Of a stretch of 64,000 nucleotides of DNA, positions 8,455 to 60,956 are shown piece by piece. A program made the translations under genes and the position numbers. Every line of letters begins with the position of its first letter. Position 1 is the first letter of the stretch. This DNA is from a virus. Below the pieces are notes generated by a model that was not told the origin of the DNA, ran no database searches, and saw nothing but the letters and a program-made list of their open reading frames with translations. The stretch is taken from positions 1 to 64,000 of the IMG/VR virus record IMGVR_UViG_3300003322_000968; one strand, 5' to 3'.

Positions 8455-9093
8455 ATGCACACGCCAATTAATAAGCTGATTGTTCAGTTAGAGAAAAAGC
8501 TGTACGATTCCAGAACTTTTGAATCAGGTCAAACCATATACTTCGATCCGTCTTGGCATCCAGAAGAATATGCCATGCTAAAGGCCACGGTGGTTTCAGT
8601 ACCACCTGGGGTGATTAATAGGCCTGATTATTATGGTTATAAAATAGAGCCAATTAGTCCCGGCGACGAGATCTTAATAAGATATGATGTGGTATTTGCA
8701 TATAATGACCAACCAGATCGCGATACACCCATATATAAGAATCTGATATTTAGCTACAACGAAAAGCTGGAACGGTTTGAAGAGCTTTGGCTATGTGACA
8801 TTCTTCAGGTGTTTGCGACCATTGACCCCGCAGGAGATTATAGTATGGTCAATGGTTTTGTAATGCTGTCTATAGTAGAAGAAAAAAGAGAATCGGGCAA
8901 TATTATAATACCGGACAGCTACAACAATCAGGAGCTTAAGAACATTGCGATTGTTCGTGCTGGAGGCAAAAGCCTTGGCTTACAATCCGGCGATAAGGTT
9001 TACATAAACCCACAAACCGTAATGCGATATCAGCTTAATCAATGGGCTTTCTTTATCATCAAAGAGCAATATATCCTTGGGCGTATTAAGTAA
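8455..9093 (+). CDS. Tandem GroES-like domain protein
   Basis: ATVVSVP...ISPGDEILI and ESGNIIIP...GLQSGDKVY repeat a GroES-like pattern. Confidence 0.55.
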   Translation: MHTPINKLIVQLEKKLYDSRTFESGQTIYFDPSWHPEEYAMLKATVVSVPPGVINRPDYYGYKIEPISPGDEILIRYDVVFAYNDQPDRDTPIYKNLIFSYNEKLERFEELWLCDILQVFATIDPAGDYSMVNGFVMLSIVEEKRESGNIIIPDSYNNQELKNIAIVRAGGKSLGLQSGDKVYINPQTVMRYQLNQWAFFIIKEQYILGRIK

Positions 9094-9146
9094 AAACTTA
9101 TCCTACTTTTCGGCCTCATTCATTGATCCTCCATAGATTAGGTGTA
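9091..9146 (+). promoter_or_regulatory. Bipartite late promoter, copy 1
   Basis: TAAAAACTTATCCTACTTT followed 43 nt after its start by TAGATTAGGTGTA; same arrangement at 24752 and 29201. Confidence 0.75.
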
Positions 9147-24182: not shown

Positions 24183-24754
24183 TCTACAAACAAGCAGATT
24201 TCAATAATTGTCAATTCAATCCATTAGTAAAAGACCCATTGCTGAGCATGTTCCCGCGCCTAACAGAGATCATAGATCCCGAATGGCGAGATGAACACCT
24301 GGATAGCATTTTGCGCTATATGATCATGGTGTATGATCCAAAGTCACCCTTAGTTTTTAATGAGCGGGATTTGAATTATCGTAAGGGCATTGCAGTGGAG
24401 TTATCCCGGTTGGATGAAGAGGTATCGGAGGCTGTTATAAATTCTACACACAAATACAGTCTGAATCTGATCGTTAAATACCTCATACGCTTTGCCAGGT
24501 CTAAGGAGTGGGCTGCGATCTGTGCTTTCGAAAGCTCCTATAACGAATCCATTAAGGAGGTCATGGAGCCTATATCTGGTAAGAATAGCCGGGAGAAACT
24601 GGACTCGGTACAAAAGAAGGCGGTTATTAAGCAGGAAATAATTGAGGATATAAAACGCCTTGATATGCTTTACCGAACCTTCTTTGGGGAGGACGAGGAG
24701 CTTCAGAAGAACAAGAAGCGCCTAACGCCGGAAATGATAGCAAGCCCCCGCTAA
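24179..24754 (+). CDS. Putative terminase small subunit / hypothetical protein
   Basis: Directly upstream of TerL; helical; assigned by position only. Confidence 0.4.
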   Translation: MIYKQADFNNCQFNPLVKDPLLSMFPRLTEIIDPEWRDEHLDSILRYMIMVYDPKSPLVFNERDLNYRKGIAVELSRLDEEVSEAVINSTHKYSLNLIVKYLIRFARSKEWAAICAFESSYNESIKEVMEPISGKNSREKLDSVQKKAVIKQEIIEDIKRLDMLYRTFFGEDEELQKNKKRLTPEMIASPR

Positions 24755-24807
24755 AAACTTATCCTACTTTAGGGCTTATTACACTCCTTCCCGTTAGATT
24801 AGGTGTA
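24752..24807 (+). promoter_or_regulatory. Bipartite late promoter, copy 2 (probably leaderless terL mRNA)
   Basis: TAAAAACTTATCCTACTTT...TAGATTAGGTGT-ATG. Confidence 0.75.
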
Positions 24808-26948: not shown

Positions 26949-29203
26949 ACCCTAAGGACAAAGACATTAAATGGGGAATGAAATACGCAAGGGCCTGTTG
27001 GTCTGACTGGAGCTATACAGTACCAAGAACAATATTTTTTAACTCTAGCGATAAATACGAGGAGCTGCGATTATATGCTCAGGGCAAACAGCCTATAAAT
27101 AAATACAAGAAGCTTTTAGCGGTAGACGAACAAACTGACAATACATGGCTTACTGTGGACTGGAGCGTTCGCCCAATCATTCCTAAATTCCGCGATATAG
27201 CATTATCACGCCTCATGCAGCAGGAGTATAACATTGTTGCTACTCCCATAGACCCTCAGGCCAAAGGTGAATTAGATCAGTATTACGCTGACATGAAAGC
27301 GAAGATAGCTATACGCAAGTTAATGGAAGAACAGAATCAGGAATTAGCCAATCATCCCATGTTGCAGCCGCAGTCAGGTGAACCAATGGACTTCGAAGAA
27401 CTGGAAATGCGCATTGAGTTTGGGGAGCAATTCAATCGCAGCAAGGATGCAGAACAGGCTATTCAGCTCATGTTTTATGAGAATGATAGCAAGTTCGTTC
27501 GACGCCGTTTATTTGAATCAATGTTTGATTGCGGTACGGCTGGCTATAAAGCTTGGTTAGACAAAGACGGTAGACCGAAGTTTAGGGATGTAAATCCTGA
27601 AGCTGTCGTAACTAACTGGTGCCGTTTCCCCAATTTTAAAGACCTGATACACGCCGGCGAAGTAATTGATGTAAGCCTGATTGATCTGGCTACTATGAAG
27701 GATGATGATGGTCAGCCCTATTTTACACAGGAGGAAATTGATGAAATGCGCAATAACATCGCAGGCAAATGGAGCAACCCCGCCATGGTTGGGCGCAGCA
27801 CCAATTATTTTAAGAATTACGATCGGCAAACTGTTAAAGTATTAGACCTGCAATTCTTCTCCTACAACGAGTTGAACTTTGAGCGGAATGTAAATCGCCG
27901 GGGCAATGTAATGTTCAATGAGGCCGAATGGGACAAGCGCAATAACAAGAAAGATAAATACCTGCGCAAGAAAATTAAAGTAGTTTATGAGATTAAGTGG
28001 ATCATAGGCACTGATTATGCGTATGACTTTCGGCTTAAGAAAGACATGAAGCGCTCGGTTGACCCTAAAAAAATGGCTGAAACTACGCTCGATTACAAAT
28101 TCTTTGCGCCGAATTTTTATGAGATGCGCACCTTGTCAATGATGGAGCGCCTTGTACCATTAGCCGACGAATACCAAATGACCATATACCGCATTCAGAA
28201 CTTCATAAATCGCATGGTGCCGAACGGCTGGTGGATAGACCTTGACGCGCTGGAGAATGTTGCATTAAATAAAGGTGGCGAGAACATGAAGCCGCTTGAT
28301 CTCTTGCAGATGTTTTATGAAACCGGTGTGCTCGTTGGTCGCAGCAAAGATGTAATGGGGGATAACGTTAATTATAAGCCCATCATTCCCATTGACAATA
28401 ACGCATACAACCAGCTCCAGGCTTTATATGAGCATTTGCAATTATGTATAGCTCAGATGCAAAGCATTATCGGCCTCAATGAGCTAACCGATGCCTCTAC
28501 GCCAAATGCAAAAACACTGAACGGTGTGGCTTCCATGGCGGTTGAATCTACCAACAACGCGTTATATCAAATTCAATTTGGTGAGCGCTATTTGCTGGAG
28601 TCGCTGGCCAACGATATGTTAATGCTTACACAGCAGGCTGTTAAGAAGGGCGACATAGAAGGCTTTGCGAAGGCCCTTAACAGCAATACGCTGCAATTCA
28701 TTAAAGCTTCTGAGGACCTGCCTTTACGCGACTATGGGATTATGTTAGACGAACGCCCCACTGATGACCAGAAGCAACTTCTGCTAATGCAGATTCAGCA
28801 AGATCAGGCTCAAGGATTACTCGATACCGCCGATGCTCTTTATATATTAAATGTATATAATGTGAAGCAGGCGCAGCAAATGCTCGCCTATAAGGTTCGT
28901 AAGAATAAGGAGGCAGCACAGAAGAATGAAATGGCGAAAATACAACAAACCGTACAGGGCCAACAGCAGTCCGCCATGCTGGCCGAACAGGCGAAACAAC
29001 AAACCTTACAGGTTGAGTGGTCGCTTAAAATGCAATATATGGAACGGGAAAAGCAATTGGATTATATGATTAAGCAACAGGAGCTGCAGCTTAAGTATGG
29101 AATGAATTCCCAGAACAACCAGACAAAAATTGTTACCACGCAAATGGCCAATGAAAGCAAAGAGCGTATTGCAGAAAACGCAGAAGCCGAACCGGCCAAA
29201 TAA
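26906..29203 (+). CDS. Portal protein (crAss-like)
   Basis: 765 aa after TerL; LRLYAQGKQPINKYK, PIIPKFRDI, MFYETGVLVGRS, IGLNELTDASTP; Gln-rich C-terminal barrel. Confidence 0.88.
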   Translation: MEDQLRGIYPPHDINPKDKDIKWGMKYARACWSDWSYTVPRTIFFNSSDKYEELRLYAQGKQPINKYKKLLAVDEQTDNTWLTVDWSVRPIIPKFRDIALSRLMQQEYNIVATPIDPQAKGELDQYYADMKAKIAIRKLMEEQNQELANHPMLQPQSGEPMDFEELEMRIEFGEQFNRSKDAEQAIQLMFYENDSKFVRRRLFESMFDCGTAGYKAWLDKDGRPKFRDVNPEAVVTNWCRFPNFKDLIHAGEVIDVSLIDLATMKDDDGQPYFTQEEIDEMRNNIAGKWSNPAMVGRSTNYFKNYDRQTVKVLDLQFFSYNELNFERNVNRRGNVMFNEAEWDKRNNKKDKYLRKKIKVVYEIKWIIGTDYAYDFRLKKDMKRSVDPKKMAETTLDYKFFAPNFYEMRTLSMMERLVPLADEYQMTIYRIQNFINRMVPNGWWIDLDALENVALNKGGENMKPLDLLQMFYETGVLVGRSKDVMGDNVNYKPIIPIDNNAYNQLQALYEHLQLCIAQMQSIIGLNELTDASTPNAKTLNGVASMAVESTNNALYQIQFGERYLLESLANDMLMLTQQAVKKGDIEGFAKALNSNTLQFIKASEDLPLRDYGIMLDERPTDDQKQLLLMQIQQDQAQGLLDTADALYILNVYNVKQAQQMLAYKVRKNKEAAQKNEMAKIQQTVQGQQQSAMLAEQAKQQTLQVEWSLKMQYMEREKQLDYMIKQQELQLKYGMNSQNNQTKIVTTQMANESKERIAENAEAEPAK

Positions 29204-29256
29204 AAACTTATCCAACTTTTGATTAGTTAAAAAAAATCGCATTTACATTAGGTGTA
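29201..29256 (+). promoter_or_regulatory. Bipartite late promoter, copy 3 (capsid operon)
   Basis: TAAAAACTTATCCAACTTT...TACATTAGGTGT-ATG. Confidence 0.75.
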
Positions 29257-40641: not shown

Positions 40642-41754
40642 ATGGCAAACTACAAAATCACATTCCGAGTGCGCTGGGACAAATATAGCGCCGCGCAACA
40701 AGGCTACCCAATTTGGTTAAGGTTTAAAGTGAAGGGGTGTAAAGAAAAGTTTAAGGAAACGGAGCTTTATATACAAAGCCGCGAGCAATGGAGCGGTAAA
40801 GAGGTTAAAAAACACCCCGATGCCCAGAAGATGAACATCCTGCTGGCAAAGAAGAAAATAGAATTGAATGCCCAGCTTATGAACGACAAAATAGCAGACA
40901 TTCCAATAACAGCAAACTCCCATAAGAAGCAGCGCGGCATCCCCAGTTTTTTTGAGTATATCAAAGAGGTTCGCGGCACGAACAGAAAAACCACCAACCT
41001 TATAAATAACATAAAAGAATATTTGGGTTACGAGCCCTCTATCCATGAAATTGACATTGCCTGGCTGCGTAAGTATGAAACTCATTTACGTAAGAAGCTA
41101 AAGTATAAGGATAATTCCATAAATACCATATTCAAGGTATTGCGTCGGGTAACCAACCAAGCCGTATTGGAGAAGCACATCAAAGAGAGGGTGATTGGCA
41201 AGGGGGCCTACCAAATGCCCGCTGCTGGTAAAACCACACCTGTTTTCCTTGTAAAAGAGGAGCGCGCAAGATGGATGAAGGGGCTTGTTGAAAATGAGAT
41301 TGCAAACCCTGTAACCCGGCGAGCGCTTCTGTATTTCATGCTATCTTGCTATAGTGGTTTGCGCCATAGTGATCTGCGTAAATTCAATACAGACAAGCAT
41401 GTGATAGATGATATGATTGTATTGCGAGCCACAAAAACCGGCGAATTAATCTGTTATCCGATAGGCGAATCTTTAAAAACAATCATTGCGCTAATTCGCA
41501 TTTTAGGCCCATTGTGCATGGAATATAAGGTTTATAATGCAGCATTGAAGGATATTGCTAAGCAGTTTGAGACCAAGAAAAATGTCTCGACACACGTAGG
41601 GCGTCATTCATTTGGCCGCTTCATGGCAGAACAAAATGTATCAGAATCAGATTGCGCATATTACATGGGAATTGGCATTAAGGTGGTGCAAATTTATTAT
41701 CATATAACAGGCAAAATTAGAAATGATCGCAATCAGCATTTGCGCGTAGCGTAG
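40642..41754 (+). CDS. int: Tyrosine integrase (Bacteroidota Arm-DNA-binding + SAM-like + catalytic domains)
   Basis: YPIWLR N-terminus; GLRHSD (R), ATKTG (K), HVGRHSF (HxxR), QIYY (Y). Confidence 0.9.
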   Translation: MANYKITFRVRWDKYSAAQQGYPIWLRFKVKGCKEKFKETELYIQSREQWSGKEVKKHPDAQKMNILLAKKKIELNAQLMNDKIADIPITANSHKKQRGIPSFFEYIKEVRGTNRKTTNLINNIKEYLGYEPSIHEIDIAWLRKYETHLRKKLKYKDNSINTIFKVLRRVTNQAVLEKHIKERVIGKGAYQMPAAGKTTPVFLVKEERARWMKGLVENEIANPVTRRALLYFMLSCYSGLRHSDLRKFNTDKHVIDDMIVLRATKTGELICYPIGESLKTIIALIRILGPLCMEYKVYNAALKDIAKQFETKKNVSTHVGRHSFGRFMAEQNVSESDCAYYMGIGIKVVQIYYHITGKIRNDRNQHLRVA

Positions 41755-44895: not shown

Positions 44896-45039
44896 AAGCA
44901 CAAGACCAGGCCTAAAGCAGCTAACCCCAAACCTCCGCTCCTTTTGCGACTTATTGATCCTCAGCTAATAACACTAACGGGCAAACATGATCCGGCTATA
45001 AATAATAAAATCAAGAAAATTATTTCACGATCTTCTTAG
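44893..45039 (+). CDS. Small basic protein (48 aa)
   Basis: Manual translation MKHKTRPKAANPKPP...; preceded by the conserved 36-bp leader. Confidence 0.4.
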   Translation: MKHKTRPKAANPKPPLLLRLIDPQLITLTGKHDPAINNKIKKIISRSS

Positions 45040-45456
45040 TGACTTCTTGGTTCGCAACTCTCCAACTTCTTTCTGTAGTTTTAGCAACTGTTTGTTTATA
45101 TCAACAAGCTTATCTAAAATAAGCTGCTGACTGGCTTCTATTATTGTCAGCTGTGTTCCCATTATTAATTCAACTGAACCAGCAGCAAGCTTTGCTTGGT
45201 TCAGCAAATAGGGTTTTTCAAAATCCTCCAGATTATGTTTGTGGCGCTTTAGATAATCATTAAAGTGCAGGGCAAACTCCATGCTAATAGGGCGTTTCAT
45301 GTTCATATAGGCGCTAATAAGGCCCGGGGAAACCTTCAGCGCTTTGGCGAGTGCCGCGCTCGTTTTAATATACTTATTTACTCTTAACCAGTTAAAGGCA
45401 TTAATGAACTGATTATTCAGTTTATAGCGATCTCTATGTGGTCTACGCTCGTTCAT
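45025..45456 (-). CDS. CI-like HTH repressor
   Basis: SAALAKALKVSPGLISAYMNMKRPIS HTH with coiled-coil C-terminus; divergent from the Cro-like gene. Confidence 0.7.
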   Translation of the reverse strand: MNERRPHRDRYKLNNQFINAFNWLRVNKYIKTSAALAKALKVSPGLISAYMNMKRPISMEFALHFNDYLKRHKHNLEDFEKPYLLNQAKLAAGSVELIMGTQLTIIEASQQLILDKLVDINKQLLKLQKEVGELRTKKSLRRS

Positions 45457-50735: not shown

Positions 50736-50764
50736 AAAAAGCCCCAGTGTTGAAACACCAGGGC
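50736..50764 (-). terminator. Intrinsic terminator at the convergence of two operons
   Basis: GCCCTGGTGT-TTCA-ACACTGGGGC + TTTTT on the minus strand. Confidence 0.7.
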
Positions 50765-50844
50765 CCGAGCTAATAGCTACTTGCTATTTGGAAGAAAAGC
50801 CCAAGCGGGCAAAAAACACTATATATGAAAAGACAAAATCATTA

Positions 50845-51501
50845 TTAAAAGTATCCCTTAATATAATCCCAAATTCGCTCTTTTATAGCTAACATTCCTT
50901 TATCGGATGGGTGAGAGCATATACCGGGATCAGCATAAAGCCCCTTCGCAGTATTTGTTTCATCTTTTTGTAAATCAGAATTTAAAATGAAAGCATATTT
51001 TTCCCGGTAAGCCCACTTTCTTATTTCCATATTAAGTGCTTTATTCCAAAATCCATCTACAATTACAACAACAGCATTTGAGGTGTTAAGGTAATTTATC
51101 AACCTTTCGTAATATTCAATGAAATCAATAGCTCCTTCTGGTACATTCTCAGATATTCGGAAAATATACAAATCAGCTCCTTTTAATAAATCCAATTGCT
51201 GAAGATCATAGGTTTTAAATTCTCTTTCAAATGCTGCTATGTTTTTAAACTCAATTGATGTACCGGGGGATTTGTCTTTGATGCTTTTAATCAGTAGATG
51301 AACAAAATCTGAATCTAAAGCGGAAGCTGCCATTCCCCAATCATGTTCCCATCCAATAGAAGGTAGCGGAGCATGTTGTACAATACTGTTACCTAAGATT
51401 ACTACCTTTTGAATTTTCCCAACCTTAGCATTGATTATAGGATTGGGTTGATTACAGGCAAAAAGATATAATGTAAAGATTAGTAAGCTAATGCGGCGCA
51501 T
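50845..51501 (-). CDS. SGNH/GDSL hydrolase lipoprotein (moron)
   Basis: Lipobox LFAC, ILGNSI block I, EN block III, HPSDKG block V. Confidence 0.82.
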   Translation of the reverse strand: MRRISLLIFTLYLFACNQPNPIINAKVGKIQKVVILGNSIVQHAPLPSIGWEHDWGMAASALDSDFVHLLIKSIKDKSPGTSIEFKNIAAFEREFKTYDLQQLDLLKGADLYIFRISENVPEGAIDFIEYYERLINYLNTSNAVVVIVDGFWNKALNMEIRKWAYREKYAFILNSDLQKDETNTAKGLYADPGICSHPSDKGMLAIKERIWDYIKGYF

Positions 51502-51559
51502 AGATTAAATTTAAAAATGGCCAGGATATTTAGTAGTATCCTGGCCGCGATGCACATAT

Positions 51560-51567
51560 CAAATATA
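51560..51567 (-). promoter_or_regulatory. Bacteroidota sigmaA-type -7 element upstream of the SGNH gene
   Basis: TATATTTG matches TAnnTTTG. Confidence 0.45.
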
Positions 51568-51620
51568 AATTACCGCGACGAATGTAAAGAAAAGTCCAAA
51601 AATGTCAATATAATTTGCGA

Positions 51621-51848
51621 CTATTTTGCCTTACGGTTATAATTACGCATTTCAAATCTGATAACGCCGCTTCGGTCACGCCACGCATAAAGCGTATCGG
51701 GGCGTAGGCTGTCGAATGAAACAACTTCCAACTCTTCTGGTAAGTCAATTTGCGAGAGCTTGTGTGCGGTAAAGGTAAGGCCGGAGATAATAAATAAAAC
51801 CAGGACACTGAGCGCTATAGTGAGCGCGGTTACGTTTCGTTTATACAT
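51621..51848 (-). CDS. Array gene: membrane-anchored small protein
   Basis: MYKRNVTALTIALSVLVLFII... Confidence 0.6.
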   Translation of the reverse strand: MYKRNVTALTIALSVLVLFIISGLTFTAHKLSQIDLPEELEVVSFDSLRPDTLYAWRDRSGVIRFEMRNYNRKAK

Positions 51849-51883
51849 TTGGTTTAGTTTGTTTATATAAAACAAAAGCCCGG

Positions 51884-52429
51884 CTATTTGCCGGGCTTAG
51901 TAACAACCTGATCTATTGCAGTTTTTATCTGTTCTTTTGTAAGATACCATGAGCTTACTTTAATACAATTCTTACCATTAAATGTTATCACTGACACTTC
52001 GCAGGTATCCCCTATGAGCGCGGTAAGCGCCTGCGCCAATCTGTTAATTTCGCTCAAGTCTTTTGAGCTGCTTGACCTGATTACCTCTGATCGTTTATCA
52101 AGCCTTGGCGGTCTTTTTTTCATAACCAATCGCTCCGGTCCGGGGCTATGAGCCTCAAGATAGGCCGCTAATTTTGCGACTATTTCAGGGTCATTTGAAG
52201 GATATTCCCGCAAAGAAGAGGCCGTAATGATGTGTGTGGCCCCTTTTATTTGCGTATTCAGGAACCAAAATTCATGATCAAGGCTGCCGGCATTTGCTAC
52301 TATTTGGTTATTATGCAGGGCGCAGGTTGTAATAGCCTCATTCCTGCAATTGGCTGCCCAATCGGCCATTTCTGTAACCAAGGGCTGTCTGTAACGGCAA
52401 AGGGTTATTTTCGAAGGCTTTTTTGACAT
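51884..52429 (-). CDS. Array gene: hypothetical protein
   Basis: Start MSKKPSK at 52429; stop codon lies in the next hairpin. Confidence 0.6.
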   Translation of the reverse strand: MSKKPSKITLCRYRQPLVTEMADWAANCRNEAITTCALHNNQIVANAGSLDHEFWFLNTQIKGATHIITASSLREYPSNDPEIVAKLAAYLEAHSPGPERLVMKKRPPRLDKRSEVIRSSSSKDLSEINRLAQALTALIGDTCEVSVITFNGKNCIKVSSWYLTKEQIKTAIDQVVTKPGK

Positions 52430-52571
52430 AACAGTGTTTTTGTTTTTAACTATATCATACCATAAATAGCAAAGCCCGCAAAAGCGGGCAGTAAACGTAA
52501 ATTTCAATTCATAGGCGAATTCTTTTTATGTTTTGCGACTATTTTAGTCAGCAATGATCAGTAATACGATC

Positions 52572-52841
52572 CTACGCTTTGCGATCCTGGTGAAACCGGC
52601 AGCGCTCACCAGGTTTTGCGACTATTTGTTGGCACTTGCCACCCTTGGCCTTATCGGCCCCGCAGCGCAGCGTGTTGGGATCGTGAAACCGGCAATAGCC
52701 AGACGGTAATACAAACGGCGACATACATTGTACAGAATCTTTCAGTTTCTTGTCGTAGCGCTTGCCCTTACATTGGGGGTTCTGGGCTATTACGGTAAGT
52801 GTTACCAGTAATAGCCCCAAAATAACGGTTAGAGTTTTCAT
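52572..52841 (-). CDS. Array gene: exported protein with two C-x-C-C-H zinc-knuckle-like repeats
   Basis: Signal peptide; QCKG...QC...YCRFH and RCGA..KGGKC...RCRFH. Confidence 0.6.
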   Translation of the reverse strand: MKTLTVILGLLLVTLTVIAQNPQCKGKRYDKKLKDSVQCMSPFVLPSGYCRFHDPNTLRCGADKAKGGKCQQIVAKPGERCRFHQDRKA

Positions 52842-52903
52842 GTTAATTGTTTATAATAAAAAACCCCGCATTTGCGGGGTTGGTAGGGATTAATAAACGG
52901 GGC

Positions 52904-53146
52904 CTATTTGTTGTTTTCTTTGAATGCTTTATATTCCGCCTTGCACCATTGCTTATAGTCGGTTTTTGTGACGCCTGCCTCTTTGTCTCTTTGTTCTTCA
53001 TACCCGTTTCTGTTTTCCCAATAGCTTTTAGCGGTTGCCTCGGTCATGAATTTTGCAGCCTTGGGGGTTTTATAATCTTCTGGGTAAAGCCTCATATTCT
53101 CTCTGAACAATTCCTTTATTATTTGCTCAATGTTATGTTTTTGCAT
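52904..53146 (-). CDS. Array gene: hypothetical protein
   Basis: Preceded by the array unit. Confidence 0.65.
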   Translation of the reverse strand: MQKHNIEQIIKELFRENMRLYPEDYKTPKAAKFMTEATAKSYWENRNGYEEQRDKEAGVTKTDYKQWCKAEYKAFKENNK

Positions 53147-53172
53147 ATTGAGTGTTTTAAATACAAAAGCCC

Positions 53173-53473
53173 CTATTCGGGGCTATGCATTGTGGTTAAA
53201 ACTTCATTCATTTCTTCACCAGGAATAAACAGCACTTCCGCGCTGTCGTCATTGTCGTTTTGCTGCGTAATTTTTAGGCTATTGTCACGATAAACGATAT
53301 AAATGCGTCCCTCGTAATTAATGCTTGAAATAGCGCATTTAATAGGCTCTGAAGGCAGTTCGTCAATTGAGGTCTGCTTAATAATGCGGGCCCAATTTTA
53401 AAAGTTCTTCATGATCCCATTCGCCATGCAGGCGCGCTTGAATTGCTCGTAATGCTTGAACTGTGTTATACAT
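53173..53473 (-). pseudogene. Array gene interrupted by a frameshift
   Basis: MYNTVQ...LKLGPHY* continues in the +1 frame as ...RIIKQTSIDELP...MHSPE*; 301 nt from ATG to the stop in the next hairpin. Confidence 0.6.
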
Positions 53474-53567
53474 ATAAGTGTTTTTAAATACAAAAACCCC
53501 GCCCAGCAACCTGGAACGGGGTAAACACTCTGTCCAACGAAAAAGAGGGTTTAACGTTTTCCCGATG

Positions 53568-53921
53568 TCAGGAAAACGCTTCAATAAATTCTTTATCCCA
53601 GTCGCCGTTTTCGTCAAATACGGTGTATTCGCAATTATCATATGCGCAATATAACGGATAGCCTGAGCGTGAATTTAAATTCGTTGCAAAGATTACCGGT
53701 TTGCCGTTAACGGTTATATTATAATTTGCAACATAAATATCCCCGCTGCTATCGTCTTTTTCGATCCTGAACGGCTCACCATTTTCTACTATTTGTATTG
53801 TAATACCCTCGGGCCGGTCATGCTGATCGCTTTTGATTAAAAGGTGCCCCATGCAGCGTAATAATTTTGCTTCATTGAAAAAATCGCGGGGTATAACGCG
53901 TAAATAGCTACTATTTGTCAT
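53568..53921 (-). CDS. Array gene: conserved phage hypothetical protein
   Basis: YLRVIPRDFFNEAKLL.C.G...LNSRSGYPLY. Confidence 0.7.
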   Translation of the reverse strand: MTNSSYLRVIPRDFFNEAKLLRCMGHLLIKSDQHDRPEGITIQIVENGEPFRIEKDDSSGDIYVANYNITVNGKPVIFATNLNSRSGYPLYCAYDNCEYTVFDENGDWDKEFIEAFS

Positions 53922-53992
53922 ATAAGTGTTTTAACTAAAAAGCCCCGCGCAATTGCTTGCAACGGGGCCGCTTTCCATCTAAAACCAAATAG

Positions 53993-54430
53993 TTAAACGC
54001 GCATAAACTCCTTCAGATCGTATTGAGTGCTACCATGTGTGAAATAGGCTCCGCCCTCCTCGTGCTCAATCTCCGCCTCATAAATTTCTTCATGCTCCAT
54101 ATCCTGCCCGTAATTAAACCGGTAATACACCCCGTCATTGCTATGATTAAACATAATTTCAATGCCGCCATGATTGCAAATTGTAAGTGTTGCATCTGGC
54201 TTGAATCTATCGGGGCTTATATCTGCAACCTTCCCCACTATTAATTCAAATTCGCGCCACCAATCGCCAATGGTATGTTTTTCGCCCATATCATTAATGG
54301 TTTGGCAGTCCATTAACGCCGCCTCGGTGTCAATACGGCGACCGGTTTCAACTGTGTAGATTTTGCCTTTAGTAAAGCAGCCGCCGCCATTGTGCAGGTT
54401 ACTTTTTGCTTTAATTTGATAAGTATTCAT
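53993..54430 (-). CDS. Array gene: hypothetical protein, probably two domains
   Basis: 145 aa; preceded by the array unit. Confidence 0.65.
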   Translation of the reverse strand: MNTYQIKAKSNLHNGGGCFTKGKIYTVETGRRIDTEAALMDCQTINDMGEKHTIGDWWREFELIVGKVADISPDRFKPDATLTICNHGGIEIMFNHSNDGVYYRFNYGQDMEHEEIYEAEIEHEEGGAYFTHGSTQYDLKEFMRV

Positions 54431-54488
54431 GTTATGAGTGTTTATTAATAGAAAAGCCCCAATGAGGGGCTAAATTTGCTACTATTTG

Positions 54489-54713
54489 TTACAGATCATC
54501 GGGGCCAAATGTATGCCAGCTAATGTAGCTATAGAGCCTATTTAATACAATCATAGCGCGCAAAGATTCCGCCGTAAATGATTTTAGTGTATTGTCAGCG
54601 CCGTGAAGCGTATTATATAACAATTTGGCTTCTGTGCCATGGGGATCAATTTTTCCCTCTTTAATGCGCTTAACAAACTGCTTGACCTGATTGTTTAATT
54701 CTGCTTTTGTCAT
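54489..54713 (-). CDS. Array gene: hypothetical protein
   Basis: Preceded by the array unit. Confidence 0.65.
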   Translation of the reverse strand: MTKAELNNQVKQFVKRIKEGKIDPHGTEAKLLYNTLHGADNTLKSFTAESLRAMIVLNRLYSYISWHTFGPDDL

Positions 54714-54743
54714 TGTATGAGTGTTTATTAATACAAAACCCCG

Positions 54744-55010
54744 CTATTTGCGGGGTTTTAGCTTTTGGAATGTATCTGTAATTATATAATAACAATCCTT
54801 TCCTTCTGCATGGCCTATTATGACAAAACCGTTTTGTTGCAACCAATATTCAGCGATCTCACAACTATCTTTGCCGTAATCAGCATCAAAGGGTATGATA
54901 ACAGACTGCTTAAATCTTTCGCTTTTAATAGAAATACGCGCCGGTTGCGTGTTAGTCTGTCCAACGTATTTAACTATCAGAATGTGGTAATTAGGTATTT
55001 TAGTATTCAT
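54744..55010 (-). CDS. Array gene: conserved phage hypothetical protein
   Basis: VKYVGQTNTQPARISI motif; stop codon in the next hairpin. Confidence 0.7.
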   Translation of the reverse strand: MNTKIPNYHILIVKYVGQTNTQPARISIKSERFKQSVIIPFDADYGKDSCEIAEYWLQQNGFVIIGHAEGKDCYYIITDTFQKLKPRK

Positions 55011-55086
55011 ATAAGTGTTTTATAAATACAAAAGCCGGCCAGGGCGAAACCTGAACCGGCTAACGTGTACCTATGAAAAACCGACC

Positions 55087-55338
55087 TTAATAAGCGCTAA
55101 TAATTTCCAATTTATTGCTTTCGCAAAAATCATTGACCTTATAAAAATCAGCAAGATTAGATGTTTTCACCAACGAATACCCTAATGAATTAATAGATTC
55201 TGTCAAGTCTTGTAATCTGTATTTATCTACCCTGGTAAGCAGGTGTGAATATTCATCAATTTCTTTAATGGCATTTTCTAAGCGCTCTAAATCTTGTTGC
55301 AATTTTATTTGTGCAGCTTTTTTAGTTTGTTTTCTCAT
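55087..55338 (-). CDS. Array gene: hypothetical protein
   Basis: Preceded by the array unit. Confidence 0.65.
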   Translation of the reverse strand: MRKQTKKAAQIKLQQDLERLENAIKEIDEYSHLLTRVDKYRLQDLTESINSLGYSLVKTSNLADFYKVNDFCESNKLEIISAY

Positions 55339-55422
55339 TGTATTAAGTGTTTTTAACTAAAAAACCCCGCTGGAACGAAACCAGACGGGGCTATGTGCTC
55401 TATCGGCTATAACAGAGATAAG

Positions 55423-55662
55423 CTAGTCAGCTATTTGGTTTGCTTGCTGTATTGCAAATTTCGTTTCGTGGATACGGCTTAAATTACCAGTTACTATTTC
55501 ACCAGTTGCCGCCCCAACTGCATTGCATAGTTGCTGCCGTATATTATCATCCTGCACATGCAGCCCTAACAATTGGGCCTGCGCTTTAATGTTAAAGTAA
55601 GCAATTGCATTATTGGCGGCCGCAACTAAATCGGCCATTATTTTAGTCTCTTTGTTTGTCAT
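55423..55662 (-). CDS. Array gene: hypothetical protein
   Basis: Preceded by the array unit. Confidence 0.6.
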   Translation of the reverse strand: MTNKETKIMADLVAAANNAIAYFNIKAQAQLLGLHVQDDNIRQQLCNAVGAATGEIVTGNLSRIHETKFAIQQANQIAD

Positions 55663-55691
55663 ACAAGTGTTTTATAAATACAAAAGCCCGG

Positions 55692-56165
55692 TTATTTGCC
55701 GGGCCTGTAAAATTCAACATAACTTAAGTCTTTGGTGTACCTTACTCGAACATTGTTCGGCAAACCCCAGTAAGCGCCACCTTTATCATATGCGGGTTCG
55801 CTCATTGGTATGTATTCATCAAATATCTTTGTACCAGCTGGTGGCGGCACTCCTATATTTGATCTGCCCATTGGAGCGCCATGTTTACCATTAACGGGGG
55901 TTATGATCTGGTTAACCAGCCGTTTACCGTTCAGGACATATAGGTCATAGCCCTGGCTTTTTAGCTCCCGTTGCAAGGTTATATAATCGGCCCTGCGCGC
56001 TCGTTTAAGTTTCTTGCAATATTCAACTTTTGCAGTACTGTGTTGCCCAATATGGCTATAGCAATATATGTCAAGGCCCGGGTTAACCCAGTCACTGCCG
56101 GGAAATACAGCTAATACACCACGGGGGTTTTCTTCAATCAGGAATAATACGGTTGTTTTGCTCAT
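55692..56165 (-). CDS. Array gene: two-domain phage hypothetical protein
   Basis: VLAVFP..CYSHIGQHS domain fused to a GAPMGR...YDKGGAYWG domain. Confidence 0.7.
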   Translation of the reverse strand: MSKTTVLFLIEENPRGVLAVFPGSDWVNPGLDIYCYSHIGQHSTAKVEYCKKLKRARRADYITLQRELKSQGYDLYVLNGKRLVNQIITPVNGKHGAPMGRSNIGVPPPAGTKIFDEYIPMSEPAYDKGGAYWGLPNNVRVRYTKDLSYVEFYRPGK

Positions 56166-56219
56166 ACAAGTGTTTTAAATAATAAAGCCCGCATGCATAG
56201 AAATGCAGCGGGCATTTAA

Positions 56220-56372
56220 TTAGTCTGGTTGTAATTCAATTGCAGCAGGAACATAATCGCCGTCATTTAGCCAGTATTCTGAATGGGCGCTATTTTCGTC
56301 TAACTGCCTGATTATTGCGCCCATTACTTTAATTAAGTCAAGCGCTTCAATCAACTTTTGTTTGTCATCCAT
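56220..56372 (-). CDS. Array gene: 50-aa protein without its own hairpin unit
   Basis: Manual translation MDDKQKLIEALDLIK...ELQPD*. Confidence 0.55.
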   Translation of the reverse strand: MDDKQKLIEALDLIKVMGAIIRQLDENSAHSEYWLNDGDYVPAAIELQPD

Positions 56373-56394
56373 AAATAAAAAAGTTTTTGAATGA

Positions 56395-56586
56395 TTAGTC
56401 GGGTTTAACCCATGCTGAAACCGTCAGGGAAATAGCTTTACCGTTTGCTTTAACATCTGTGCGCTTAGCGCCGTTACTGCTAGCTACAATAAGCGTTTTG
56501 CCGCTGCCGCTCATTTTAGGCGCCTCTAAGGGCAATGTGATTACAAGATGTTGCCTGCCTTCGATTGTCTTGAGTTCAGTTTGCAT
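56395..56586 (-). CDS. Array gene: small conserved protein
   Basis: SGSGKTLIVASSNG motif. Confidence 0.7.
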   Translation of the reverse strand: MQTELKTIEGRQHLVITLPLEAPKMSGSGKTLIVASSNGAKRTDVKANGKAISLTVSAWVKPD

Positions 56587-56613
56587 ATAAAGTGTTTTAA
56601 ATAAGAAAAGCCC

Positions 56614-56943
56614 TTAACGGGCTTTCTTGTTAGCGAATTCACGGGCTTTTAACCAGTATTTTGCAGCGTTGGGAGCATTGTCTGGGTGGTAATGTATGTT
56701 TTCCTCCCGCTCTGTATTGGTGCCATAGTCTTTTATATAAAATCCTGTACTATACCACGAACTAATGCTTGCGCTGTCAGGGCTCTGAGAGGCATGTATG
56801 TGTGTTTTCATTAATGCAACCAACTCCCTAAATGTTACTTGCTGCTTTTCTTCAATAAAGCCAGTATCTGAATAATCCCCTATTGCAGCGCTTTCGGGTG
56901 TAGTTTCAGCGTATGTGCGCGAAATGATTATGTAGTTGTTCAT
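56614..56943 (-). CDS. Array gene: hypothetical protein
   Basis: Start MNNYIII at 56943; TPESAAIGD..DTGF. Confidence 0.65.
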   Translation of the reverse strand: MNNYIIISRTYAETTPESAAIGDYSDTGFIEEKQQVTFRELVALMKTHIHASQSPDSASISSWYSTGFYIKDYGTNTEREENIHYHPDNAPNAAKYWLKAREFANKKAR

Positions 56944-57000
56944 GATATGAGTGTTTATAAAACAAAACCCCCATACAACTAAATGCATGGGGGTTAATAT

Positions 57001-57207
57001 TTAAAAATCCGGGGTATGTTCAACCTGTTCCCCGTTTGCTTTTTCACATAAGTGAACACTTACCATGTGCTCCTTACTCTTTTTGGGCTTAAAGTAGGCA
57101 ATAGCTTTCTGTTTTGCTTCATATAAATCATTAGCCCAAATGTCGGTTTCTTTGTCATTGTAAAATGCCTTATAGCCATTTAGGCCATTTGTTTTATTGT
57201 TTTCCAT
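57001..57207 (-). CDS. Array gene: conserved small phage early protein
   Basis: NGYKAFYN.K...A..LYEAKQKA...VHLCEK.NGEQV.H. Confidence 0.7.
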   Translation of the reverse strand: MENNKTNGLNGYKAFYNDKETDIWANDLYEAKQKAIAYFKPKKSKEHMVSVHLCEKANGEQVEHTPDF

Positions 57208-57260
57208 TGTAAAGTGTTTTAATTAAAAATGCCCGACTAATTAAAGTCAGGCATTGGTAA

Positions 57261-57338
57261 TTAATGAGTACGTATAAATTGCGCGACAATGTTTGCCAGC
57301 ACAACAAAGGAGCTGATCAAATAATTTACATATTTCAT
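57261..57338 (-). CDS. Array gene: 25-aa hydrophobic peptide
   Basis: MKYVNYLISSFVVLANIVAQFIRTH*, with its own hairpin unit. Confidence 0.5.
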   Translation of the reverse strand: MKYVNYLISSFVVLANIVAQFIRTH

Positions 57339-57382
57339 ATCGTTAACAAGTTTATATAATAACAAAACCCGCATTAAGCGGG

Positions 57383-57820
57383 TTAATCTTCAATTACGTG
57401 ACCATCTAAATTTAAAAGGAACAGGTGAATGTCTAAATCATTTCCCCTGAATATTTTACAACACTCATTCATTAAAAAGTCCATATGATGCGCATCCTGC
57501 TCATGTATTCCTTTTAAACAATCTGCCGCGCTATCGTCCGGGTTGTAAAGCTCACCGTTATTATATAACTCGGTCAGATACGTTTTGGCCTGTTCTAATG
57601 TTGTAATACCCTCAGGTAGTGTTGTTTTAATAAGTCGGGGCGCTGGCTTTTTGAGTTCCGTTAGTTTCCTTTTAGCAAGGGCCGTAACCACTTGTATTAT
57701 GTCGCATATTTCAAGGTCATTTAATTGCGCAGCGGCAGCAACTTCATTTGCCGCTTTAGCAATTGCAGCCGCTTTATTTATTTCAGCCAACTGTTCCGGC
57801 GTTAAATCTTTGTATTGCAT
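57383..57820 (-). CDS. Array gene: hypothetical protein
   Basis: 145 aa; YNPDDSAAD motif. Confidence 0.65.
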   Translation of the reverse strand: MQYKDLTPEQLAEINKAAAIAKAANEVAAAAQLNDLEICDIIQVVTALAKRKLTELKKPAPRLIKTTLPEGITTLEQAKTYLTELYNNGELYNPDDSAADCLKGIHEQDAHHMDFLMNECCKIFRGNDLDIHLFLLNLDGHVIED

Positions 57821-57870
57821 AAGAGTGTTTTATAAATAAAAAAACCCGCTTTAATGCGGGTTAATTGCTT

Positions 57871-57972
57871 TTAAAATAACAGAATCAATGTCATAATTAC
57901 CAACAAGGGAATAAGAGAACAATAAAGGACTATAAGCAACCGTGAATAGCATTCAGCAAATAATTGTTTCAT
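57871..57972 (-). CDS. Array gene: 33-aa membrane peptide (first gene of the array)
   Basis: MKQLFAECYSRLLIVLYCSLIPLLVIMTLILLF*. Confidence 0.55.
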   Translation of the reverse strand: MKQLFAECYSRLLIVLYCSLIPLLVIMTLILLF

Positions 57973-58021
57973 ACAAGTGTTTATAAAACAAAACCCCCGA
58001 ATACATTGCTGCAAACGGGGG

Positions 58022-58543
58022 CTTAAAACACTAGAGCAGGCAAAAGCCTGCCAAAAAACACTATAATTAACTAATAACAAACTTCTTATGGTTATAGCGT
58101 GTTATCTTCACAGCGTAACAGCGCTATAATAATTATATTGCTCGTTAGTCATTCAAATACAATCTCATTTAACCTAACTATTCAGCAAATGCATCTTACT
58201 GCAATGCTATTGTTCCACACAAATAAATGAGTATTGTAACCCGATTGCTATAATGTATAATTGAGCCATTATAGCGCGTAATGTATTACGCTTGCGCAGC
58301 AGTAGCGGTCAGTAGAGTGGAAACTCATTGGAGAGGCAATATTGCTATTGTCCCCGTCGCGCCCCTGGTAGGTGTTTATTGACCTGGATTTACAGGTGCT
58401 AGCCCATTACGGGCAACTAGCTGGCCAGCACTAACAAAATGTTAGCTTATTTACTGGCAATCGGTAATTAGAGCAATCCCTGGCTTGATCTATGTCAAAT
58501 AGCTAATTGTTATAGCAAGGTTTGAGCGCCTTTGCTGTAACAA
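58022..58543 (-). ncRNA. Candidate large structured leader / ncRNA
   Basis: No credible ORF; at least 8 helices including a multibranch domain closed by CCGATT(58241)/AATCGG(58464). Confidence 0.55.
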
Positions 58544-58546
58544 CAA

Positions 58547-58592
58547 TGCTAAGATAGTACATTTGTTACAATTGCAATACATTTGTAACAAA
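58547..58592 (-). promoter_or_regulatory. Promoter for the leader/array with an overlapping operator-like inverted repeat
   Basis: Minus-strand TTG-N18-TATCTTAGCA; TTTGTTACAA (58562)/TTGTAACAAA (58583) inverted repeat. Confidence 0.55.
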
Positions 58593-58641
58593 ATAAAATG
58601 TTAAATAGGTAAATAGTTGTAGTGAAGGTAGTTATAAAGCG

Positions 58642-59004
58642 TTATTGATCTGCATTAAAACCATTGCCATATTTACTGATCTTTATTTTCACAAGATGGT
58701 CAATTGTGTAATTAAATTGCTCTATAGTTTTAATTCCGTCAGTAGTTATTGCATACACTACATTTAATCCAACTTGATTGCGGGTTATGTTGTGGTTACC
58801 AACTAACCTGTTTATAGATTGCTGGTAAGAGCGTTTACTGATTACTCCATATTCTAAGCAAATAGTGTCATATAAAGCCCCGTAACTGTAATTGCTGAGC
58901 GGGAATGATAAGCATTGAAGCAGTAAGAGATCGATCTTTGTTGAGCCCCTCATTGCCCTAAGGGCCTGGTTTTGTGCCTGGGTGTATAGTGTACCAAAAT
59001 ACAT
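58642..59004 (-). CDS. Winged-helix (MarR/PadR-like) DNA-binding protein
   Basis: SYQQSINRLVGNHNITR.....VYAITTDG. Confidence 0.55.
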   Translation of the reverse strand: MYFGTLYTQAQNQALRAMRGSTKIDLLLLQCLSFPLSNYSYGALYDTICLEYGVISKRSYQQSINRLVGNHNITRNQVGLNVVYAITTDGIKTIEQFNYTIDHLVKIKISKYGNGFNADQ

Positions 59005-60897: not shown

Positions 60898-60956
60898 TAT
60901 AGGCTGTATGAACAGTTATAGAATGGGTATTGTACATACACCTAATGTAAGGAATT

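Follow-up and report, generated by a model that had tools for sequence, protein, structure and literature searches.

In the hyperplastic regions of T4-type phages, small ORFans are flanked by promoter(early)-stem-loop (PeSL) elements, which combine a terminator-type stem-loop with a promoter; recombination between units deletes, inserts or replaces single genes, and the authors who described them drew the comparison with integrons (PMC2839356, PMC4122927). Morons, known from temperate phages such as HK97 and HK022, are horizontally spread genes, usually of accessory or unassigned role, that carry their own promoter and terminator (PMC3594210). Cluster K mycobacteriophages carry start-associated sequences (SAS) as well as extended start-associated sequences (ESAS): an asymmetric box stands 3-7 bp before the ATGs of non-structural genes, in a single orientation apart from rare inverted copies, and about half of SAS boxes follow an inverted repeat with a variable spacer (PMC3203893). 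Here, we describe an array of 19 consecutive minus-strand open reading frames (ORFs) of 25-181 codons, at 51.6-58.0 kb of the phage genome IMGVR_UViG_3300003322_000968, in which nearly every gene follows a hairpin, a T-tract and the box AAACACT. The window analyzed comprises bases 1-64000 of this 77,572-bp IMG/VR virus record, which CheckV rates as complete.

Hairpin, T-tract and box precede 18 of 19 small genes

Eighteen of the 19 array genes lie behind a hairpin with a folding energy of -11 to -20 kcal/mol, and the 8 nucleotides (nt) after it include 5-7 T. Terminator-like sites reach a density of 2.2/kb in the array versus 0.28/kb on the remaining minus strand (~8-fold), and a further scan returned 24 such sites where 8.8 were expected. 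The stems are unlike in sequence, yet all 18 fold, and G-U pairs number 12 in the minus-strand RNA versus 1 in the plus-strand RNA, which bears out an earlier reading of this DNA made from the sequence only (hereafter the sequence-only reading): it had noted that the stems differ but keep their pairing, with G-U pairs working mostly on the mRNA strand. Summed hairpin energy is -274.5 kcal/mol for the minus-strand RNA versus -243.6 kcal/mol for the plus-strand RNA, and the T-tract is present on the minus strand only. Since G-U pairing and the T-tract both favor the minus strand, the hairpins are mRNA-strand intrinsic-terminator-like elements. From hairpin end to ATG the distance is 13-27 nt, and 44 nt in unit 18.

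The window contains 26 copies of the heptamer AAACACT where 8.7 +/- 2.2 are expected (0/100 shuffles reach 26); 15 of these are minus-strand copies located at 52433-57982. When the whole genome was scanned for T-rich sequence followed by AAACA[CA]T and an ATG within 9 nt, matches clustered only at 51.8-58.0 kb on the minus strand. The box stands 3-9 nt before the ATG, as an exact copy in 15 units and as a variant retaining TATAAAC-like sequence in three (units 3, 17 and 19). The sequence-only reading had counted 18 small genes, each behind the same unit of hairpin, U-tract and start. This holds for the hairpins of 18 of the 19 genes and for the 15 exact boxes; it has to be relaxed for the three variants and for gene 7, the sole gene without a hairpin, which is also without a box. 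All 18 hairpins are followed by the box or a variant of it.

Aligned on the box, the units give the consensus GGGG(C/T), T4-7, (G), TATTTA(TA), AAAACACT, 3-7 nt, ATG. The 3' arm of the hairpin then falls in register (1.5-2.3 bits) while the ATG floats by 3-7 nt; in an alignment on the ATG the signal blurs. It is thus the terminator and T-tract, and not the start codon, that set the position of the box, at a fixed 13-16 nt from the hairpin; unit 18 has a 28-nt insertion between its hairpin and its box. Hairpin, T-tract and box thus form one rigid module with the start codon floating behind it. Every other gene start of the 77.6-kb genome lacks the box, which argues against a general translation signal.

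Bacteroidota primary sigma factors recognize TAnnTTTG as their -7 element, at -12 to -5 (PMC9723704). A minus-strand scan of the units found no TAnnTTTG and no match to the combined -33/-7 pattern (TTG ... TAnnTTTG), in agreement with the sequence-only reading, which had seen no promoter of this type, and sigma-70 consensus matches were not enriched (21 found versus 29 expected). The TTTTG of the T-tract was considered as a -33 element and rejected: the matching -7 box would fall in coding sequence, and is absent. The conserved box itself appears to be the best promoter candidate in the units.

A proposed terminator-promoter cassette and its alternatives

We lean, with a little better than even confidence, toward a reading in which each unit is an overlapping intrinsic terminator and non-canonical promoter-like box, so that each gene would have one promoter and form an insulated transcription unit. 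The transcript of the upstream gene would end at the GC hairpin and U-tract, and the T-tract would run directly into an A/T-rich stretch and AAACACT (T4-7 (G) TATTTA(TA) AAAACACT), a promoter of non-host-consensus type. Where box and ATG are 3 nt apart, positions -12 to -7 would read (T/A)AAAAC, and transcription would start at the ATG or a few nt before it, giving leaderless or very-short-leader mRNAs. The hosts are predicted to be Bacteroidota-like bacteria, a group that does not use Shine-Dalgarno (SD) pairing, and for this reason such mRNAs would suit them. A common box would allow one factor, either a host alternative sigma factor or an unrecognized phage protein, to switch ~18 genes jointly; over evolutionary time, the 20-45-nt units may serve as homology patches for the loss, gain and swap of single-gene cassettes. 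The architecture of the units, its statistics, the strand-specific features of the terminators and the strain breakpoints at units are observed in the sequence; promoter activity, start site and factor identity are inferred. The box always comes with a terminator, and gene 7, which is not cut off by one, needs no box, as fits a signal for re-initiation and not for translation. A single read-through transcript would have to pass 18 strong terminators in succession, which speaks against it.

Two further motif classes point in the same direction. The phage carries a second, clearly bipartite motif, AAAAACTTATCC followed after ~43 nt by TAGATTAGGTGTA (TA(G/C)ATTAGGTGTA), at window positions 9091-9146, 24752-24807 and 29201-29256 on the plus strand, at 60946 and 50326 on the minus strand and at genome position 76172 on the minus strand. 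In three genes (terL at 24807, and those at 29256 and 60937) the final A of the motif doubles as the first base of the ATG, suggesting that leaderless design is a habit of this phage; the motif resembles a middle or late promoter from which leaderless mRNAs would be made. The metagenomic contig L235 (WBZT01000151.1), from an unrelated Bacteroidota-type phage, has a homolog of gene 8's C-terminal half. Its locus at 0.5-20 kb has 29 co-oriented motifs of the extracytoplasmic function (ECF) type on the plus strand (GTAAC-N17-CGTAAC; GTAACAAA-N14-CGTAAC), whereas the opposite strand has none. Nineteen of the 29 are followed at exactly 6 nt by an ATG, which places them at the canonical -12 to -7 for transcription from its A, and several stand behind a hairpin and T-tract, which suggests that a terminator and a phage-specific promoter abutting the ATG may be a recurring design in this phage group. 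In the 20 kb examined on this contig, no sigma factor was found, only DUF932.

Several observations weigh against a promoter in every unit. The box matches no known consensus and is unlike the Bacteroidota sigma-A -33/-7 pattern (PMC9723704), and a Pfam and PHROGs search of the proteome gave no sigma factor, RNA polymerase or known activator. The box-to-ATG spacing of 3-7 nt is looser than in clear leaderless designs, and the runs listed as containing the phage are DNA runs, with no RNA run among them. Between 50 and 59 kb, the plus strand has four copies of the core (50814, 53523, 58026 and 58056) that lack the A/T-rich part and a real ORF, suggesting that the AAACACT core has some role beyond its part in a promoter. 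Finally, G002 (IMGVR_UViG_3300012956_000020), the nearest relative with an analogous array, has structured intercistronic units without terminators that look like RNA-level elements.

These last points bear on a read-through operon, which we consider unlikely. Transcription would start in or before the 58.0-58.6 kb leader and continue with a termination-resistant polymerase, or the hairpins would be 3' stabilizers left after processing; the box would then be an intercistronic RNA element, namely a processing site, a translational operator or a target of two complementary AGUGUUU (anti-box) stretches that lie at the leader RNA's 3' end. Such an operon would fit the lack of host-type promoters in the units and the non-coding region at the array head, where window positions 58030-58640 (611 nt) are ORF-free and highly structured on either strand (z = -3.7 for minus, -5.0 for plus); folding of the 58.0-58.6 kb region does not decide the functional strand. 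It would also fit the inverted core copies. Each is separated by 0-3 nt from a minus-strand terminator hairpin, on its 5' side, and reads AGUGUUU, the complement of the box, in minus-strand RNA: AGUGUUU stands immediately 5' of hairpins 0, 1 and 15 and of the last terminator. The predicted minimum-energy minus-strand fold leaves the first copy unpaired. In G002, the array of small genes lies at contig 58.2-67.1 kb, and its unit consists of a stop codon within ACTAAC, a short hairpin, then AAACGAAA and ATG. The hairpin loop (GCCTA) can pair with downstream AGGCAT / TAGGC, and some units follow tRNA T-arm-like GGTTCGATTCC stems, with no full tRNA called there; because this array looks RNA-regulated, read-through or processing stays alive as an explanation.

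The units themselves fit it less well. All 18 hairpins have a full U-tract, needless for stabilizers or processing sites, and the box is set relative to the hairpin and not to the ATG. Gene 7 is translated without a box, and processive antitermination does not need a repeated one. A check for antitermination of the lambda N/Q or HK022 put type found a structured 0.6-kb leader, no known antiterminator family among the proteome matches and no Rfam match in the window, where a tRNA scan was likewise negative. The sequence-only reading had proposed a promoterless array dependent on processive antitermination; we do not prefer this, since the box always accompanies the terminator, the bipartite motif is set on ATGs in three genes, and 19 of 29 L235 promoters stand 6 nt before an ATG.

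The inverted copies could possibly be divergent promoters, small-RNA-like seeds or operator sites. A box/anti-box circuit, or a box that embodies the specificity of a sigma-like factor of soil Bacteroidota or of the phage, seems rather improbable to us. In such a circuit, RNA from 58.0-58.6 kb would end in two single-stranded AGUGUUU(U) stretches around a small hairpin, before a terminator, an arrangement of the 3' end like that of small RNAs acting in trans; control of ~18 cassettes at once would then fall to this RNA or to a protein that recognizes the core on DNA. The anti-box also ends the 3' untranslated regions of the last gene of the block and of gene 14, where it (53523-53529) abuts hairpin 15. 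At 58.55-58.60 kb there is an inverted repeat, TTGTTACAAATGTA / TTGTAACAAATGTA, and the region also has two plus-strand TACATTTG boxes.

It is similarly doubtful that the AAACACT core serves chiefly as the DNA target of a phage regulator, with the adjacent A/T-rich stretch as the promoter, an idea that would refine our preferred explanation: the units would be silenced or switched jointly, like the 'stoperator' sites of cluster A mycobacteriophages. The candidates are a CI-like helix-turn-helix (HTH) protein (45025-45456) and a DUF4364 winged-helix protein (58642-59004), whose gene lies directly upstream of the array head. The phage looks temperate and reliant on the host polymerase, because integrase and CI-like genes are present and no sigma factor, RNA polymerase or antiterminator was found; this temperate look speaks for a regulator site, as do the inverted cores, which are without the A/T-rich part and always next to a hairpin. 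The core is non-palindromic, however, and nearly always in one orientation, and the CI-like protein, a putative binder of the box, matches HTH_3 weakly (E = 0.005).

Strain variation and gene content of the array

The evidence on variants comes from short-read contigs of four DNA runs of a single root-metagenome study, which carry the phage together with co-occurring variants. Five of the nine listed contig departures into unlike sequence fall in units, which make up 14% of the sequence (P about 0.005). Two breakpoints lie exactly at hairpin 5' edges, at 53183 (unit 16) and 52489 (unit 18), and one directly 3' of the gene 8 ATG. One contig joins 54459 to 54743, an exact fusion of the unit 12 hairpin to the unit 13 T-tract and box with loss of gene 12; the crossover is at the end of ~24 nt common to both units. 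Strain breaks at unit edges and this hybrid support the view that the units also serve as recombination joints for single-gene cassettes, as the sequence-only reading had suggested in calling the unit a recombination handle. Gene 7 is missing from another contig via an 11-nt direct repeat, ACCnGACTAAT, and in a variant strain the hairpin loop of unit 4 alone is altered (loose end at 57246). In variant strains, 50832-51577, with a 218-amino-acid (aa) gene and a sigma-A-like promoter, is replaced by 83 nt. The left breakpoint of this replacement lies 4 nt after a plus-strand box-ATG (50814-50827). A gene 8 variant has 10 of 17 single-nucleotide polymorphisms at third codon positions, indicating that the ORFs are under coding constraint. 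Strain insertions and deletions suggest cassette turnover within a single plant-root community.

Breakpoints at hairpin edges, co-oriented single-gene cassettes with a hairpin at each junction, and the tyrosine integrase encoded at 40642-41754 could also be taken for an integron-like system, in which the hairpins would be attC-like sites and the phage recombinase would excise and insert single-gene circles. An attC site is a long imperfect hairpin with R''/L''-L'/R' boxes and a GTTRRRY core. In the array, short and perfectly paired GC stems close loops of 4-7 nt and carry U-tracts; there is no GTTRRRY core, and the hairpin alignment shows no conserved R/L boxes. The integrase, the sole tyrosine recombinase in the proteome, is an ordinary Phage_int_SAM_5 protein ~10 kb from the array, and neither attI nor a Pc layout accompanies it. 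The one junction that is fully resolved falls within ~24 nt common to two units, the expected outcome of homologous recombination, and no cassette-circle junction was seen in the variant contigs. We regard an integron-like system as very improbable and drop the comparison made in the sequence-only reading, as neither attC nor IntI/attI/Pc features were found.

None of the array proteins has a Pfam, PHROG or PADLOC assignment, and PADLOC gave no credible defense-family match among them. At the array head, two inverted box copies (AAACACT, plus strand, 58026-58032 and 58056-58062) flank the small hairpin 0 (58052-58035) and abut hairpin 1. All units and genes that follow are on the minus strand. 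Unit 1 and gene 1 (57871-58024) comprise hairpin 58024-57991, box 57982-57976 and a 33-aa hydrophobic peptide gene at 57871-57972; genes 1, 3 and 15 are only 25-33 codons long. Unit 2 and gene 2 (57383-57862) have hairpin 57862-57843, box 57830-57824 and a 145-aa gene at 57383-57820, and unit 3 and gene 3 (57261-57384) have hairpin 57384-57366, the variant box ATAAACTTG and a 25-aa gene at 57261-57338. They are followed by unit 4 and gene 4 (57001-57255; hairpin 57255-57228, box 57219-57213, gene 57001-57207, 68 aa), unit 5 and gene 5 (56614-56995; hairpin 56995-56966, box 56956-56950, gene 56614-56943, 109 aa) and unit 6 and gene 6 (56395-56626; hairpin 56626-56606, box 56597-56591, gene 56395-56586, 63 aa). 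Gene 7 (56220-56372, 50 aa) is probably co-transcribed with gene 6.

Unit 8 and gene 8 (55692-56213) comprise hairpin 56213-56187, box 56175-56169 and a 157-aa gene at 55692-56165, whose C-terminal half has homologs in other phage cassette arrays. Next are unit 9 and gene 9 (55423-55706; hairpin 55706-55684, box 55672-55666, gene 55423-55662, 79 aa), unit 10 and gene 10 (55087-55391; hairpin 55391-55364, box 55352-55346, gene 55087-55338, 83 aa), unit 11 and gene 11 (54744-55061; hairpin 55061-55033, box 55020-55014, gene 54744-55010, 88 aa) and unit 12 and gene 12 (54489-54757; hairpin 54757-54737, box 54726-54720, gene 54489-54713, 74 aa). Unit 13 and gene 13 (53993-54471) have hairpin 54471-54455, box 54443-54437 and a 145-aa gene at 53993-54430, and unit 14 and gene 14 (53568-53969) have hairpin 53969-53941, box 53931-53925 and a 117-aa gene at 53568-53921. 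Unit 15 and gene 15 (53190-53522) comprise hairpin 53522-53496, box 53483-53477 and a gene at 53378-53473 that stops after 31 codons; a ~70-codon open frame follows in the +1 frame with no ATG near its start, and a T-TTA-AAA heptamer lies just 5' of the stop. This region (53190-53473) could be a frameshifted or broken gene, or a case of recoding.

Unit 16 and gene 16 (52904-53184) have hairpin 53184-53168, box 53157-53151 and an 80-aa gene at 52904-53146. Unit 17 and gene 17 (52572-52881) have hairpin 52881-52862, the variant box AAACAAT and an 89-aa gene at 52572-52841; its product, with a signal peptide, 6 Cys and repeated C-x-F-H motifs, is predicted to be a small secreted protein. It is the sole array protein with a homolog in G002 (37-43% identity by method; locus L151, 6373-6636, minus strand), and G002 was the only match in an alignment search with gene 17. 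Unit 18 and gene 18 (51884-52489) comprise hairpin 52489-52474, box 52439-52433 and a 181-aa gene at 51884-52429, and unit 19 and gene 19 (51621-51898) comprise hairpin 51898-51876, the variant box AAACAAAC and a gene at 51621-51848 for a 75-aa protein with one hydrophobic segment. The tail of the block (50739-51578, minus strand) contains a sigma-A-like box, TATATTTG (51567-51560), hairpin 51546-51519 and a 218-aa lipoprotein-like gene (50845-51501); at its 3' end, an inverted box (50814-50820) abuts hairpin 50801-50790, followed by a convergent terminator (50766-50739). A 13-mer, AAATAGTCGCAAA, is repeated co-oriented on the minus strand at 49.2-54.5 kb, in coding and non-coding sequence of the lower half of the array and beyond.

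The large terminase and the portal protein have PHROGs matches, and among isolates the closest are podophages of Flavobacterium and Cellulophaga (terminase identity 27-31%). The proteome also includes two Cpn10-like proteins, Sipho_Gp157, VRR-NUC, several HNH/NUMOD homing endonucleases and a 1817-aa virion protein of the 'large polyvalent protein' type (LPD38), in which no DFDxD motif and no PDB match were found. Only two near relatives were found in IMG/VR: G001 (terL 77% identity), a fragment that ends before the syntenic region, and G002 (56%); a terL alignment search of 185k genomes added one distant match. The array region is not conserved in G001 and G002, and neither they nor five distant terL relatives have a cluster of AAACACT. 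In IMG/VR, a strict 25-nt pattern of the unit had no match, and a loose one gave only single chance matches among the matches listed; gene 13 had no relatives among viral contigs, nor did a 252-aa neighbor gene among metagenomes. Outside the window, tRNA-Ile(TAT) and tRNA-Met genes lie at genome 68.0-68.3 kb (L121, 8022-8268), adjoined at 68.9-71.6 kb by a phage-borne CRISPR-like array with a 373-aa Cas12f/TnpB-like ORF. None of its spacers match cassette units; their sole self-match is at 71785-71815.

Comparison with PeSL elements, morons and other cassette systems

The sequence-only reading had put the array forward as an undescribed system, which is too strong a claim given the close precedents of PeSL elements (PMC2839356, PMC4122927), morons (PMC3594210) and SAS/ESAS (PMC3203893). 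With integron arrays it shares tandem co-oriented single-gene cassettes separated by hairpin-forming sites; unlike them, it has no adjoining IntI-type integrase, attI, Pc or attC, and its cassettes look self-promoted. The 13-bp GGGATAGGAGCCC-type SAS box has an SD-like AGGAG, whereas the AAACACT box is unrelated and without an SD core, although it occupies the same 3-7-nt position. ESAS inverted repeats are 17 bp long, conserved in sequence and not terminators; here, the stems vary freely and carry U-tracts. Morons are isolated insertions with unrelated promoters, whereas ~18 cassettes stand here in tandem behind one common box. Terminator-like hairpins separate the cassettes, each of which would have its own promoter, the phage has temperate-type genes (integrase, CI-like), and the ORFan content resembles that of PeSL and moron regions.

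The likeness to PeSL elements extends to a terminator-like stem-loop in the unit (18 hairpins, -11 to -20 kcal/mol, 5-7 T) and to units that flank ORFans in a region variable between co-occurring strains. PeSL-like recombination between units may account for the breakpoints enriched at units and the one 12/13 hybrid (short-read contigs, one study). PeSL promoters are strong host sigma-70 promoters (-35, -10 and A/T-rich upstream sequence) with an SD sequence; the units described here have neither a host-consensus promoter nor an SD sequence. The position of the PeSL stem-loop varies, whereas here the hairpin always comes first, in fixed register and with a full U-tract, and the ATG follows 3-7 nt after the box. 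Promoter activity and mini-circles have been demonstrated for PeSL elements of T4-type phages; in the present array, in a temperate-type Bacteroidota podophage, promoter activity is predicted from sequence. If our reading is correct, the units would supply compact, insulated expression modules of ~45 nt for use in Bacteroidota, whose promoters are unusual and which do without SD pairing, and would point to a promoter specificity beyond current consensus models. Taken together, we regard the array as a variant of the known PeSL/moron-type cassette organization and not as a new kind of system; if the units work as terminator-promoter pairs, the PeSL principle that a regulatory unit is also a recombination joint for ORFan genes would not be confined to Proteobacteria and their virulent T4-type phages but would extend to Bacteroidota of soil and roots and their temperate-type phages.

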